Shown: piece by piece, positions 15,396-30,136 of the stretch | Layout: each line of letters opens with the position of its first letter | How positions within the stretch are numbered: the first letter of the stretch is position 1 | Assembly: GCA_046727635.1 (NCBI GenBank) | Contig: JBKPDA010000036.1 | Location: forward strand, 1 to 30,136 | DNA length: 30,136 nt | Source: Actinomycetota bacterium | GTDB taxonomy: Bacteria; Actinomycetota; Thermoleophilia; Solirubrobacterales; Thermoleophilaceae | Reading direction: 5' to 3' | Made by a program: the position numbers and the translations under genes | The notes under the pieces: generated by a model | What the model was told of the DNA's origin: nothing | The model's database searches: none | Seen by the model: only the letters and a program-made list of their open reading frames with translations

Positions 15396-15460
15396 ATAGC
15401 CGTTCTTCTATGCAATGTGTCGGATCTTCGCTTGTTCATCAATGTGAGCCCACGTAGGGT
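15396..15460 (+). promoter_or_regulatory. Promoter of glpX-fba with upstream dyad
   Basis: ATAG-N8-CTAT dyad at 15396-15411; -35 TTGTTC (15432-15437), 17 nt, -10 TAGGGT (15455-15460). Confidence 0.6.
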
Positions 15461-15498
15461 GGCCAGCCATCCCGACGACGAGCGACGAGGAGCGCAAA

Positions 15499-16503
15499 TT
15501 GAGCGTCCACGCGAATCTGGCGATCCGCGAACCCGCTCCTGTGCCGCCGGGAGGGCTCGACCTGGTCACCCTGGAGGCCGCGGCGCTCGCGGCGACGCGG
15601 GCCGCCGCGGTCGCCTGCCAGCGATTCGTCGGACGAGGCGACAAGCACGCCGCTGACGCCGCCGCGGTGGAGGCGATGCGCGAGGCGCTGGCGGGAGCGC
15701 CCGGGCTCGGGACGGTGGTGGTCGGTGAGGGGGAGAAGGACGAGGCCCCGATGCTCGCTGCGGGGGAGCGGGTCGGCGCCGGCGGCCCGGCGTTCGACAT
15801 AGCCGTCGATCCCCTGGAGTGCACGACCCTGTGCGCGAAGGGCCTCCCGGGCTCGCTCGCGACGATCGCATGCGCCGAGGACGGCGCACTGCTGCGTCCC
15901 GGCCGATCGCATTACATGGAAAAGCTGGTCGTCCCCCCCGCGGCCAGAGAGGCGATCGACATCACAGACAGCCCGGAGGCGAATGTGCGAAGCGTCGCGC
16001 GCGCACTCGGCAAGCGTCCCGCGGACCTTCGGGTGGTAGTCCTGGACAAGCCGCGCCACGCCGAGCTGATCGGGCGCCTGCGCCGCGCCGGCGCCGCCGT
16101 GACCACGCCGCCGGACGGGGACGTCGCCGGCGCGCTGGAGGCGCTGCTTCCCTCCGGCGAGGCGGATCTGCTGATCGGGATCGGCGGCACGCCGGAGGGC
16201 GTGATGACGGCGTGCGCCGTCAGGGCCCTGGGAGGAGGCATGCTGGCTCGGCTCGCGCCTCAGAGCGACGCGGAGGCGGCGGCGCTCGCGGAGGCTGGGC
16301 TCGACACCGATCGCGTGTACGAACTTGACGACCTCGTCGCCCGTTCGGCCTTCTTCGCAGCGACCGGCGTCACAGGCGGTGCGCTGCTCCGAGCCCCACG
16401 CCTCCTTCCCAGCGGCGTCGTGACGAACTCGCTGGTGATCTCGGAGCGCTCCCTCAGGGTGGAGGAGGCACGCTCGATCCCGCAACCCCAGGAGGTGGCA
16501 TGA
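15499..16503 (+). CDS. glpX: Class II fructose-1,6-/sedoheptulose-1,7-bisphosphatase (GlpX)
   Basis: GDKHAADAAAVEAMR, VGEGEKDEAPML, DIAVDPLE, YMEKL, GIGGTPEGV, FAATGVTGG; GAGGAG RBS before TTG 15499. Confidence 0.92.
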   Translation: MSVHANLAIREPAPVPPGGLDLVTLEAAALAATRAAAVACQRFVGRGDKHAADAAAVEAMREALAGAPGLGTVVVGEGEKDEAPMLAAGERVGAGGPAFDIAVDPLECTTLCAKGLPGSLATIACAEDGALLRPGRSHYMEKLVVPPAAREAIDITDSPEANVRSVARALGKRPADLRVVVLDKPRHAELIGRLRRAGAAVTTPPDGDVAGALEALLPSGEADLLIGIGGTPEGVMTACAVRALGGGMLARLAPQSDAEAAALAEAGLDTDRVYELDDLVARSAFFAATGVTGGALLRAPRLLPSGVVTNSLVISERSLRVEEARSIPQPQEVA

Positions 16504-17531
16504 CGATGGTCGGCAGGCGGCTCGAGGAGACGGCCCAGGCGATGGTCGCGGAGGGGAGGGGCATCCTCGCCGCAGACGAGAGCAACGCCACGATGACCAA
16601 GCGGCTCGAGGCGGTGGGCGTGGAGTCGACGCCAGAATCGCGGCGCGCGTTCAGGGGGCTGCTGTTCACGGCAGAGGGCGCGGCCGAACACATCAGCGGC
16701 GTGATCATGTACGACGAGACGATCCGCCAGCGGGCCGACGACGGTACGCCGTTCCCGGCGTTCCTCGCGAGCAAGGGCATCCTGCCGGGCATCAAGGTCG
16801 ACACCGGCGCGAAGCCGCTCGCGGGCTTCCCGCGCGAGACCGTCACCGAAGGTCTCGACGGTCTCCGGGCTCGCCTTGTTGAGTACCGGGAGCTCGGCGC
16901 GCGCTTCGCGAAGTGGCGCGCCGTGATCGGCATCGGCGACGGACTGCCGACCCGAGCGTGCGTCGAGGCGAACGCTCACGCGCTCGCCCGCTACGCGGCC
17001 CTGTGCCAGGAGGCCGGCATCGTCCCGATCGTCGAGCCCGAGGTCCTGATGGACGGTGAGCACTCGCTCGCCCGTTCGGAGCAGGTAACGACGGCCGTCC
17101 TGCGAGCCCTCTTCCAGCAGCTGCTCGAGCACCGCGTCATGCTCGAAGGGTCGGTGCTCAAGCCGAACATGCTGCTCTCGGGATACGACTGCCCCGAGCA
17201 GGCCGGTGTCGACGAGGTGGCGGAGCGGACGCTCGCGTGCCTCCGCCGCGTCGTGCCGGCGGCGGTGCCCGGGATCGCCTTCCTGTCGGGGGGCCAGAGC
17301 GACGAGCGCGCGGCGGCGCATCTGAACGCGATGAACAACATCGGCGGTGTGCCGTGGGAGCTCACCTTCTCCTACGGTCGCGCGCTCGTCGCCGCGCCGC
17401 TCAAGGCGTGGTCGGGGGACGACTCCAGGGTCGCCGACGCTCAGGCCGCGTTCCTGCACCGGGCGCGCTGCAACACCGCTGCTCGAAGGGGCGAGTACTC
17501 CGAGGCGATGGAGCACGAGCTGGTCGCGTGA
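16500..17531 (+). CDS. fba: Class I (Schiff-base, eukaryote/glycolytic-type) fructose-bisphosphate aldolase
   Basis: GILAADES, GIKVDTG, FAKWR, VPIVEPEV, LKPNM, FLSGGQS, TFSYGRAL. Confidence 0.93.
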   Translation: MTMVGRRLEETAQAMVAEGRGILAADESNATMTKRLEAVGVESTPESRRAFRGLLFTAEGAAEHISGVIMYDETIRQRADDGTPFPAFLASKGILPGIKVDTGAKPLAGFPRETVTEGLDGLRARLVEYRELGARFAKWRAVIGIGDGLPTRACVEANAHALARYAALCQEAGIVPIVEPEVLMDGEHSLARSEQVTTAVLRALFQQLLEHRVMLEGSVLKPNMLLSGYDCPEQAGVDEVAERTLACLRRVVPAAVPGIAFLSGGQSDERAAAHLNAMNNIGGVPWELTFSYGRALVAAPLKAWSGDDSRVADAQAAFLHRARCNTAARRGEYSEAMEHELVA

Positions 17532-17574
17532 GGCGCCCGAGCTCGTTGCCGGAGGCGGCGGGGCGAATCGAGCA

Positions 17575-17643
17575 CTCATAAAGCATTCTCAATGAGATCT
17601 GAGGAAAAGTTTGCTTGTACCTTCTGAGTTACGGAGTTAGCGT
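17575..17643 (+). promoter_or_regulatory. cbbL promoter with LysR/CbbR-type dyad
   Basis: CTCAT-N12-ATGAG (17575-17596) containing TAA-N7-TCA (TNA-N7-TNA, 17579-17591); -35 TTGTAC (17615-17620), 17 nt, -10 TAGCGT (17638-17643). Locally AT-rich. Confidence 0.7.
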
Positions 17644-28563: not shown

Positions 28564-28574
28564 GAAGTGCTGTC

Positions 28575-28712
28575 CTACCGGCGGTTGTACAGGTACATCG
28601 TGACTTCGCAACAGAGGTCGTCGAAGTCAAACACCGGCTTGATCCACGTATGACGGCTCTCTGTTGGAGCGGAGATGATCTCCGAGTCGAATTCGGCCTT
28701 CGTCCAAGTCAT
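28575..28712 (-). CDS. pqqA: PQQ precursor peptide PqqA, 45 aa (not in the ORF track)
   Basis: AGGGAGG RBS; MTWTKAEFDSEIISAPTESRHTWIKPVFDFDDLCCEVTMYLYNRR-stop; ExxxY core (EVTMY); directly upstream of pqqB. Confidence 0.92.
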   Translation of the reverse strand: MTWTKAEFDSEIISAPTESRHTWIKPVFDFDDLCCEVTMYLYNRR

Positions 28713-28746
28713 GGAACCCTCCCTATCGATCTACGTTGACGAACCA

Positions 28747-29244
28747 TCAACCCAGCAGCACGAACCCAGCGGTCGCCAGCAGCAAATCGGCTCCGGCGAC
28801 CCGGACGGCGGCGGTGCGGCGGGCCAGCACCGGGAGCACGCGCGGGACCATGCCCGCCGCGACCAGCCCGACGAACGCCAGCAGCGAGCTCGACAGCGCG
28901 AAGCCCGCGGCCTGGCCGAGAAGCCAACCGGCCGAATGGTCGCCCGCGGCGCCATAGGCGAGGTTGTCGAGCGTCAACGCCAATGGCAGCACCCACACCG
29001 AGAGCTCAGCGAGTCGCTGCATGCTGGCGGCGACGACGAGCAGCCAGACGCCCAAGCCGGCCATCATCACGATCTGGGGCACCTCGGTCGAGAGCCGCCA
29101 GCCGACGCCCGCCCCGATCAGCAGTGCGGCTGCGTCGGCTACGCCGAAGGCCGCGGCGAAGGGCAGACGCCACCGTCTGTCGACGATCGCGCCAATGGCC
29201 ACGCAAGCGATCAGGCTGTCCAGACCTAGAAGCAAGAATCCCAT
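28747..29244 (-). CDS. Polytopic membrane protein, MntP/YtaF-like
   Basis: GGAG RBS before ATG 29244; almost entirely hydrophobic; two Asp motifs in repeated halves, LGLDSL and LTLDNLAYG. Confidence 0.6.
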   Translation of the reverse strand: MGFLLLGLDSLIACVAIGAIVDRRWRLPFAAAFGVADAAALLIGAGVGWRLSTEVPQIVMMAGLGVWLLVVAASMQRLAELSVWVLPLALTLDNLAYGAAGDHSAGWLLGQAAGFALSSSLLAFVGLVAAGMVPRVLPVLARRTAAVRVAGADLLLATAGFVLLG

Positions 29245-29313
29245 TTTCAACTCCAGACTCTGATTAGTGAGCTTGTCGTTGTTGCCACTCCAAACACGAT
29301 GGGAACGGCAGCG

Positions 29314-30136
29314 CTATTCCGGGAGCGCGAATGCGAACAGCGCGCTTCCGTGCGACGACCCGAGCATCTTGGGCAGGAATCCTTCAGCCCAACCGCCCCA
29401 GCCGCTCGGCGCCACGACGTACTGCCGTCCGTCGATGCTGTAGCTCGACGGGCTGCTGTGGTGGCCACTGCCGCACTGGAACTGCCACAGCAGGTCTCCG
29501 GAGTTGGCGTCCCACGCGTTGAACTCCCCGGTCGGCTCGCCGCCGAACACGAGGTCGCCGCCCGTGGCCAGCAGCGACGAGCACATGCACAGGTCGTTGG
29601 TCCAGCGCCACCGCTCCTGGCCGGTGCGCGGATCGTAGGCGCTCACGTACCCGCTCTGGTCATCGCCGTCCACAGCGACACCGGCACCCCAGTAGGGGAT
29701 GCTCTCCTTGAACTCCCTGCGCCGCCGCGTGGCCGTCGCGCCGACGTCCTGCACCGGGACGTAGAGGAGCTCCGCCTTCGGGCTGTAGCACGCGTGCGTC
29801 CATTCCTTGGCGCCGGCCGGACCCGGCCAGAAGTGCACCGGGTCGCCCTCCTTGTCGGGGTAGACCTTCGGCGTCACGTTGCCCTTCTCGTCGACCTCGC
29901 CCCAGTCGATGCGGTCCACGAACGGCGCCACCCGGACCGCCGACATGTCCGTGCGGTCGAGGATGTAGAGGAACCCGTTCTTGTCGAAGTGGGCCGCCAG
30001 CTTCTGCCCGTCGAGATCGAACAGGATGTGCTCCATCACGGAGTCGTAGTCCCACAGGTCGTGCGGCGTGTACTGGAAGTGCGCCTTGATTTCGCCGCTG
30101 TCGGCGTCCACGGCGACACCCGAATCGGTGTAGAGG
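29314..30136 (-). CDS. PQQ-dependent dehydrogenase, methanol/ethanol family, C-terminal part; runs off the right edge
   Basis: Frame open to the edge: LYTDSGVAVDADSGEIKAHFQYTPHDLWDYDSVME, HFDKNGFLYILDR, Trp-docking repeats (GQERWRW, GDLLWQF), GRQYVVAPSGWGG. No CxxCH heme domain at the C-terminus. Confidence 0.93.
   Translation of the reverse strand, partial: LYTDSGVAVDADSGEIKAHFQYTPHDLWDYDSVMEHILFDLDGQKLAAHFDKNGFLYILDRTDMSAVRVAPFVDRIDWGEVDEKGNVTPKVYPDKEGDPVHFWPGPAGAKEWTHACYSPKAELLYVPVQDVGATATRRRREFKESIPYWGAGVAVDGDDQSGYVSAYDPRTGQERWRWTNDLCMCSSLLATGGDLVFGGEPTGEFNAWDANSGDLLWQFQCGSGHHSSPSSYSIDGRQYVVAPSGWGGWAEGFLPKMLGSSHGSALFAFALPE

Follow-up and report, generated by a model that had tools for sequence, protein, structure and literature searches.

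A red-type RuBisCO operon converging on PQQ and alcohol dehydrogenase genes at the possible edge of a one-carbon island in a soil Thermoleophilaceae genome

Genes on the two sides of the junction

The window analyzed here is a whole contig of 30,136 bp from a soil Thermoleophilaceae metagenome-assembled genome (MAG) of 3.1 Mb, which is 78% complete and divided into 324 contigs. In this window, a plus-strand run of Calvin-Benson-Bassham (CBB) cycle genes, ending in mptA and an R2lox-like gene, meets a minus-strand run with the genes for pyrroloquinoline quinone (PQQ) synthesis and a PQQ-dependent alcohol dehydrogenase (ADH) (Table 1). We identified genes by Pfam and NCBIfam profile matches and found all the genes that a preliminary description of this DNA had claimed for the two runs in their places. 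The distance of 18 nt between the converging stop codons was also borne out: the R2lox-like gene ends in TAG at 25540-25542, and pqqE ends in a reverse-strand TAG at 25561-25563.

The genes for both RuBisCO subunits, the CbbX activase, and phosphoribulokinase (PRK) lie in one operon. The closest PDB matches of CbbL were red-type form I enzymes. The RuBisCO is probably form IE-like, an assignment drawn from the host phylum, the presence of CbbX, and published form IE operons (PMC12999727). The intergenic gaps of the plus-strand run measure -4 to 15 nt, with the exception of 160 nt ahead of cbbL. Because tkt and mptA are separated by only 15 nt and mptA and the R2lox-like gene by only 7 nt, the supply of methanopterin cofactor is probably co-transcribed with the cbb genes, and mptA and the R2lox-like gene would both be part of the cbb transcript. 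We found no promoter-like or terminator-like signal above chance across 15000-30136. At the junction itself there was no terminator-like structure beyond chance, and folding was no better than that of shuffled sequence (z = -0.63).

The mptA product exceeded the cut-off of its own model, TIGR00294, while it reached just 157 bits with the FolE2 model (cut-off, 215 bits). It is of the archaeal type and fits as the first enzyme of methanopterin synthesis. A relative of the window (L014) has the same mptA/R2lox/cbb neighborhood. We found a second mptA copy, 72% identical to the first, on contig C314 of the same MAG (L101:6878-7879). About 4.5 kb from this copy, on the minus strand, is a gene of the SBP56 family (PF05694, 607 bits; L101:1063-2370); a BTAD regulator, an FkbM methyltransferase, and a sigma-70 gene lie between them. 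The SBP56 family includes methanethiol oxidases, which release formaldehyde.

The R2lox-like protein missed all R2lox hidden Markov model (HMM) cut-offs (best, 69.6 versus 194 bits) and also that of Pfam Ribonuc_red_sm (27.6 versus 33.6). In about 22 of 35 Solirubrobacterales loci, its gene is next to the ADH gene or no more than about 3.5 kb away from pqqE, and we therefore assigned it to the PQQ/ADH side of the junction and not to the cbb side. Thus, where mptA and R2lox had been proposed at the junction, the position of both genes and the identity of mptA held, but the second gene is only R2lox-like and belongs with its pqq neighbors. In two relatives, a protoglobin gene and a MarR regulator lie near the R2lox, cbb, and pqq genes (L005:2860-4073 and L099:759-1978), which may hint at sensing of O2 or redox state.

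On the minus strand, PqqB, PqqC, PqqD, and PqqE all exceeded their equivalog cut-offs. The GTG start of pqqD is fixed by its overlap with the pqqC stop codon as GTGA. The pqqA open reading frame (ORF) is preceded by GGGAGGG and encodes two TWxKxxFD-like leader motifs; at 45 aa, it is longer than the usual PqqA peptide. The 167-aa membrane protein is 53 to 69% identical to the products of the same-position genes in five relatives (L005, L006, L011, L014, and L038) and had no Pfam match even at E = 1. It aligned with the product of the same-position gene of a further relative, G135, a member of the MntP family (PF02659), at 29% identity (E = 1e-6), which suggests that it is distantly MntP-like.

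Table 1. Genes of the two converging runs and of the regulator pair upstream, with the profile or structural matches that identify them
Feature	Coordinates	Strand	Evidence
glpX, class II fructose/sedoheptulose bisphosphatase	15499-16503	+	PF03320, 367 bits
fba, class I fructose-bisphosphate aldolase	16500-17531	+	PF00274, 448 bits
cbbL, form I red-type RuBisCO large subunit	17692-19155	+	NF003252, 768 bits (cut-off 438)
cbbS, RuBisCO small subunit	19171-19623	+	PF00101, 121 bits
cbbX, red-type RuBisCO activase	19628-20614	+	TIGR02880, 482 bits (cut-off 459)
prk, phosphoribulokinase	20617-21594	+	PF00485, 123 bits
tkt, transketolase	21591-23648	+	Transketolase_N, Transket_pyr, and C-terminal domains
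mptA, GTP cyclohydrolase of methanopterin biosynthesis	23664-24710	+	TIGR00294, 295 bits (cut-off 220)
Divergent R2lox-like di-metal carboxylate protein	24718-25542	+	Best PDB match R2lox 7qbp, 60 bits
pqqE, radical SAM enzyme	25561-26682	-	TIGR02109, 493 bits (cut-off 381)
pqqD, peptide chaperone	26663-26926	-	TIGR03859, 79 bits (cut-off 46)
pqqC	26923-27660	-	TIGR02111, 316 bits (cut-off 240)
pqqB	27660-28514	-	TIGR02108, 327 bits (cut-off 245)
pqqA, 45-aa precursor peptide	28575-28712	-	ORF, E-X3-Y core in CCEVTMY
167-aa membrane protein	28747-29250	-	Conserved position between ADH and pqqA
PQQ-ADH, C-terminal 273 residues	29314-30136	-	TIGR03075 positions 269-530, 265 bits
OmpR-type response regulator	13144-13962	+	Pfam Response_reg/Trans_reg_C
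Histidine kinase	about 13959-15335	+	Pfam HisKA/HATPase_c

The one-carbon island and its joins with the cbb operon

Close relatives of the window in the public collection carry the labels Thermoleophilaceae or Solirubrobacterales. We surveyed pqqE neighborhoods at 80 loci, together with a tblastn map, and took order-wide counts from a sample of 251 Solirubrobacterales genomes, which are related to each other and so do not give independent counts. We also viewed 20 kb on either side of the cbb operon in the 35 genomes that carry cbbL. Four relatives have paired labels (G231/L011, G213/L014, G135/L030, and G180/L005), and the window is G000.

In relatives with long contigs, one-carbon (C1) genes, the ADH gene, and the pqq genes form one island. 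In it, DUF1464-mtdB-fae is divergent from fhcBADC. The island also has a pabB-like gene, a Hydantoinase_A-like gene, MfnB/GHMP kinase, DUF447, mch, ATP-grasp, and CitG-like genes, a short-chain dehydrogenase/reductase (SDR), Pterin_4a, DUF6513, and a DUF4346 pterin-binding protein. The PQQ part consists of a cupredoxin-like protein, the ADH, the membrane protein, pqq(A)BCDE, and usually the R2lox-like gene. Contig C315 of the window's own MAG carries fae (235 bits), FTR/fhcD (199 bits), fhcB/A/C, a partial mtdB, and a pabB-like gene. The screen for fae, mtd, mch, and fhc proposed in the preliminary description thus recovered fae, fhcBADC, and part of mtdB. By tblastn and HMM searches of the same MAG, we did not find the MSMEG_3727-associated protein, DUF4346, Pterin_4a, or MfnB, most likely because of assembly loss. 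Hexulose-phosphate synthase (TIGR03128) gave no match above cut-off in five island-carrying relatives.

Among the 251 genomes, 35 carry cbbL, 14 carry the ADH gene, 19 carry fae (17 with strong matches), and 102 carry NiFe hydrogenase. We found fae in 13 of the 14 ADH carriers, usually 5 to 20 kb from the ADH gene on the same contig. We found cbbL in 10 of the 14 ADH carriers and in 25 of the 237 other genomes. Within genus g3, the corresponding counts were 6 of 9 and 1 of 22. The ADH and cbbL genes co-occur far more than expected in the order; relatedness among the sampled genomes inflates the statistics, so that Fisher values overstate the association.

The cbb operon is physically linked to the island in four genomes, through four different junctions. 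In the window, cbb-tkt-mptA-R2lox converges on pqqE. In G231, ADH-pqqBCDE, major facilitator superfamily (MFS) and MarR genes, and glpX-fba-ComB-like-cbbLSX-prk-tkt follow each other on a single strand. In G213 the order is pqqE, R2lox, mptA, an MFS gene, and then cbbLSX-prk-tkt. In G135, cbbLSX-prk stands between Hydantoinase_A and MfnB, which adjoin each other in G180. A probable fifth linked genome is G180 itself, where glpX-fba-ComB-like lies at a contig end beside the R2lox and pqq genes. The ComB-like gene (PF04029, 2-phosphosulfolactate phosphatase) lies between fba and cbbL in these relatives (L099:12846-13757 in G231 and L005:3-692 in G180) and near R2lox and fae in L007; at this site, the window has just the 160-nt gap. 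Its product could serve the cbb operon as a phosphoglycolate-type phosphatase or could belong to cofactor synthesis.

In the cbb-centered view, four operons lie by the island, three by NiFe hydrogenase, and one by coxL. A tree of cbbL placed the window in a subclade with G231, G213, G105, G135, and G221 whose node is weakly supported (80/37). All six members of this subclade are ADH positive, versus 4 of 26 elsewhere. The hydrogenase-linked operons of G138 and G189 fell in the other main clade. The tree cuts across the family labels, and this mismatch points to transfer.

The alcohol dehydrogenase and other genes of the locus

The window's ADH is truncated because the contig ends inside the gene. 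What is left of it matches the methanol/ethanol family of PQQ beta-propeller dehydrogenases and shares 94% identity with a full-length orthologue of 562 aa (P0122). This orthologue can be aligned over its whole length with PedH (6zcv, PedH residues 28-584). Ranked by score against PDB entries, P0122 gave 362 bits with PedH, 304 with ADH IIB, 292 with ExaA, 287 with XoxF, and about 250 with MxaF. The lanthanide motif claimed for the window's ADH was upheld: its WDYD aligns on the WDFD of lanthanide-dependent PedH. We collected 25 full-length orthologues from Solirubrobacterales, Rubrobacter, Pseudonocardia, Amycolatopsis, Nesterenkonia, and Allosalinactinospora, and all 25 have WDYD and CCGNVNRG. 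Their vicinal Cys-Cys aligns with that of PedH; it was seen in the orthologues only, as the N-terminal half is missing from the window's ADH.

None of the 25 orthologues has a signal peptide. Hydropathy over 15 residues never exceeded 1.1, and a leader would not fit into the open frames. Instead, all 25 start with a conserved hydrophilic N-terminal segment, MATEYVDAG.... Because it has no signal peptide, the enzyme is probably cytoplasmic. These features suggest that the ADH belongs to a distinct leaderless clade with the lanthanide motif and is not XoxF. In two long-read MAGs, the ADH gene consists of two adjacent pieces in different frames (L095:16320-17907 in G135 and G138:C3:128285-129977), a pattern that points either to a frameshift pseudogene or to an error in sequencing.

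Cytochrome cL (TIGR03872) gave no match in five island-carrying relatives. The conserved upstream neighbor of the ADH gene in relatives encodes a PF23509 protein of the MSMEG_3727-associated family. Its model has a cupredoxin fold (predicted local distance difference test score, 68), and Foldseek matched it to the N2O-reductase CuA domain, auracyanin, and EfeO. In this protein (L005:10451-10885) and its orthologues, His57, His73-Cys74, and His91 are nearly invariant, with a spacing unlike that of canonical type 1 copper ligands. We predicted the complex of an ADH orthologue with this neighbor and obtained a score of 0.60, while the best control scored 0.00. Among 78 solved complexes, 51 reached the pass mark, as did 2 of 108 mismatched pairs, and scores of 0.60 or less comprised just 5 of the 78 solved complexes and all 4 passing mismatches. 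A prediction at 0.60 would therefore be wrong more often than right unless the complex was likely beforehand, and we take it only as a hint that the two proteins may interact.

Directly upstream of glpX lies a two-component pair (Table 1), with sugar-uptake genes further upstream. The pair is a possible regulator; we found no orthologue of it beside the cbb operons of relatives by tblastn. Positions 1-13400 of the window carry an SDR fragment, a cupin, a PfkB kinase, a sugar ATP-binding cassette transporter with a LacI regulator, an MFS transporter, two S-adenosylmethionine methyltransferases, and a BNR-repeat protein. No gene in this part is related to C1 or CBB genes.

A possible C1 oxidation module and its alternatives

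The gene content suggests, but does not prove, that these common soil Thermoleophilaceae oxidize compounds like methanol to CO2, which they then fix again. We lean toward the reading that the window is the edge of a Thermoleophilaceae/Solirubrobacterales C1 (methylotrophy) island that has recruited a red-type form I CBB operon. The most economical account would be a CBB-based module for C1 or alcohol oxidation, an actinobacterial counterpart of methylotrophy with XoxF and the CBB cycle. According to this model, the PQQ ADH with its lanthanide-type Asp would oxidize a small alcohol, methanol or another, to its aldehyde, probably in the cytoplasm, with PQQ made by the products of the adjacent pqqABCDE. 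Electrons would leave through an acceptor, for which the conserved cupredoxin-fold neighbor is a candidate. Fae would capture formaldehyde on tetrahydromethanopterin (H4MPT), and MtdB, Mch, and the Fhc complex would oxidize it to formate. Formate dehydrogenase, for which the MAG holds only a truncated candidate, would convert formate to CO2. RuBisCO, PRK, and the other CBB enzymes would then fix the CO2 again at the expense of the reducing power and ATP obtained.

A more far-reaching version, which we put forward tentatively and consider possible rather than probable, is that the abundant soil Thermoleophilaceae/Solirubrobacterales are monoderm, lanthanide-dependent autotrophic methylotrophs. 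In these bacteria, a cytoplasmic, leaderless PQQ dehydrogenase would oxidize methanol and pass electrons to a cupredoxin, formaldehyde would follow an archaeal-style H4MPT/methanofuran route to formate and CO2, and a RuBisCO operon would have been drawn repeatedly into the island and, here, fused transcriptionally to methanopterin synthesis.

The preliminary description had proposed a module of PQQ-based C1 or alcohol oxidation and CO2 fixation. The adjacency of the two runs, fae and fhc in the MAG, MptA, and the co-occurrence of ADH and cbbL argue for such a module, but a number of observations weigh against it. Its gene-neighborhood check did find the join again, rearranged, in independent assemblies of the nearest relatives; physical linkage is nevertheless confined to one small clade nearest the window. 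In the pqqE-centered view, only the closest relatives, L005, L011, and L014, had cbb genes within 10 kb. Linkage was seen in 4 of the 35 cbbL carriers and 4 of the 10 genomes with both genes, and the other six have the two on separate contigs. Moreover, 25 of the 35 cbbL carriers have no ADH gene.

The enzymes themselves raise similar doubts. By score ranking, the leaderless ADH appears nearer to PedH-type ethanol dehydrogenases than to XoxF. Five ADH-pqq carriers outside the Solirubrobacterales (Pseudonocardia, Rubrobacter, Amycolatopsis, Nesterenkonia, and Allosalinactinospora) include none with fae and one with cbbL; because these carriers lack fae, the ADH family is not intrinsically bound to C1 metabolism. 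In the 78%-complete MAG, tblastn and HMM searches found neither the N-terminal half of the ADH elsewhere nor mch, both most likely missing through assembly loss; mch is present in the G180 and G135 islands. The proposed screen for formate dehydrogenase returned no complete gene, only a truncated candidate at a contig edge (260 bits over half of the model).

Transcription adds further points on this side. Because the two runs converge, the ADH and pqq genes cannot share a transcript with the cbb genes. No metatranscriptome held the organism itself (word shares, 0.05 to 0.08). Four soil RNA runs yielded contigs of at least 88% likeness, with the deepest cover on cbbL, part of mptA, and the ADH fragment; these contigs, to which the RNA evidence is limited, stem from relatives and cannot show co-transcription.

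The alternative that survives best, although we hold it to be unlikely, is that the CBB operon supports lithoautotrophic or mixotrophic growth on CO, H2, or both (trace-gas chemosynthesis), a role already proposed for carriers of form IE. Its place by the island would then stem from a shared flexible genomic region or from horizontal transfer of the two together, and not from metabolic coupling. The MAG has a form I CO dehydrogenase (CoxL above its cut-off) that could drive the CBB cycle, and it counts against a C1 role for the operon as well. NiFe hydrogenase is common in the sample and is present in most genomes with both ADH and cbbL, but we found none in the 78%-complete MAG when we carried out the proposed hydrogenase screen. 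Form IE RuBisCO has been tied to hydrogenases in the literature (PMC12999727). Consistently with this, and again to the detriment of the C1 reading, cbb genes lie 6 to 10 kb from the NiFe hydrogenase large subunit in three relatives (G189:C9, about 89-99 kb; G138:C2, about 234-243 kb; and G163:C5, about 557-569 kb); in G247, they lie near a coxL. The hydrogenase-linked operons are in another clade of the cbbL tree, however, than the uniformly ADH-positive subclade of the window. The many cbbL carriers without ADH and the disagreement of the cbbL tree with family labels would suit this alternative. In contrast, four different junctions, one of them an insertion amid the H4MPT genes of G135, are hard to put to chance, and mptA starts 15 nt after tkt. 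Solirubrobacterales has both hydrogenase-linked and PQQ/H4MPT-linked cbb operons, in different cbbL clades.

It seems to us improbable that the ADH is a general dehydrogenase for ethanol, higher alcohols, or aldehydes, with the H4MPT genes only detoxifying formaldehyde and the CBB cycle reassimilating CO2 or serving as a redox sink during growth on reduced substrates, in which case growth would not be autotrophy based on C1 compounds. The nearest solved relatives of the ADH (PedH, ADH IIB, and ExaA rather than XoxF or MxaF) and the wide spread of the ADH-pqq cluster without fae in Actinomycetota fit this view. However, enzymes of the ExaF/PedH type also oxidize methanol and formaldehyde (PMC6414531), and the Solirubrobacterales carriers of the ADH gene, with a single exception, have fae, mostly close by. 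A full set of H4MPT and methanofuran biosynthesis genes in the island would also be a heavy investment for mere detoxification.

Finally, we rejected as hardly credible an assembly or binning chimera of two unrelated regions: the MAG is fragmented and the window ends inside the ADH gene, but three independent MAGs (G231/L011, G213/L014, and G135/L030) have cbb genes by the same island, L005/G180 has glpX-fba beside it, two independent soil DNA runs hold 70 to 76% of sampled words across 22500-27500, and GC content is even across the junction.

Methanol is one of the main volatile forms in which carbon reaches soil, and the organisms consuming it are thought to be chiefly Gram-negative carriers of XoxF or MxaF. 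If the C1 reading is true, a very abundant actinobacterial order would join the lanthanide-dependent C1 guild, the PQQ/lanthanide enzyme system would have a cytoplasmic version, and form IE RuBisCO would gain a second energy source in addition to H2 and CO. According to one recent paper, Gram-positive MAGs are not expected to encode XoxF, given its periplasmic location (PMC10875860). MAGs of Solirubrobacteraceae and Thermoleophilia have been binned from 13C-methanol-labeled soil DNA and were not called methylotrophs (PMC10994693). Such labeling would be read differently, as carbon passing through CO2 would resemble cross-feeding.

We found no published description of a module of PQQ-ADH, H4MPT, and CBB genes in Thermoleophilia or Solirubrobacterales, within incomplete literature coverage. 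The preliminary description had not recognized the architecture as described, but it has a precedent: on pSymB of Sinorhizobium meliloti, the genes for XoxF, glutathione-linked oxidation of formaldehyde, import of lanthanides, the CBB cycle, and PQQ lie within 28.5 kb (PMC12628762). Methanol carbon enters this bacterium via the CBB cycle, and methylotrophy with XoxF, the CBB cycle, and clustered genes is proven (PMC12628762). The same source describes this type of methylotrophy for S. meliloti 2011 and Bradyrhizobium and cites Methylacidiphilum, Xanthobacter, Paracoccus, and Beijerinckia for it (PMC12628762).

The predicted system at our locus resembles this type in its lanthanide-type PQQ dehydrogenase, oxidation of formaldehyde to formate, formate oxidation, and refixation by the CBB cycle. 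It differs from that of S. meliloti in its monoderm actinobacterial host, in a PedH-like leaderless dehydrogenase in place of the periplasmic XoxF, in the lack of a cytochrome cL match in the five relatives, in a formaldehyde route linked to H4MPT/methanofuran rather than glutathione, and in a RuBisCO of the actinobacterial red-type (probably form IE-like) lineage. With PedH/ExaF (6zcv/6zcw; PMC6414531), its best match, the ADH shares the catalytic Asp and the lanthanide Asp in WD[YF]D, and its full-length orthologues share the aligned Cys-Cys. Unlike these enzymes, its orthologues have no signal peptide and carry the conserved N-terminal EYVDAG segment, and the neighbor of the ADH gene encodes a cupredoxin-fold protein and not cytochrome c550.

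As in the islands of Methylorubrum extorquens and other Proteobacteria, fae, mtdB, mch, and fhcABCD cluster with biosynthesis genes (ATP-grasp, CitG-like, DUF447, Hydantoinase_A-like, and MfnB). In contrast to those islands, the host here belongs to the Actinomycetota, MptA is of the archaeal type, and a cbb operon is inserted in some genomes. The cbbLSX-prk core, often with glpX, fba, and tkt, is shared with the form IE operons of trace-gas-oxidizing Actinomycetota (PMC12999727). In the clade of the window, the neighbor of this core is a PQQ/H4MPT C1 module rather than a hydrogenase, and mptA stands at the end of the operon. We concluded that the cluster in the window is an actinobacterial variant of the already known clustering of XoxF, CBB, and PQQ genes.

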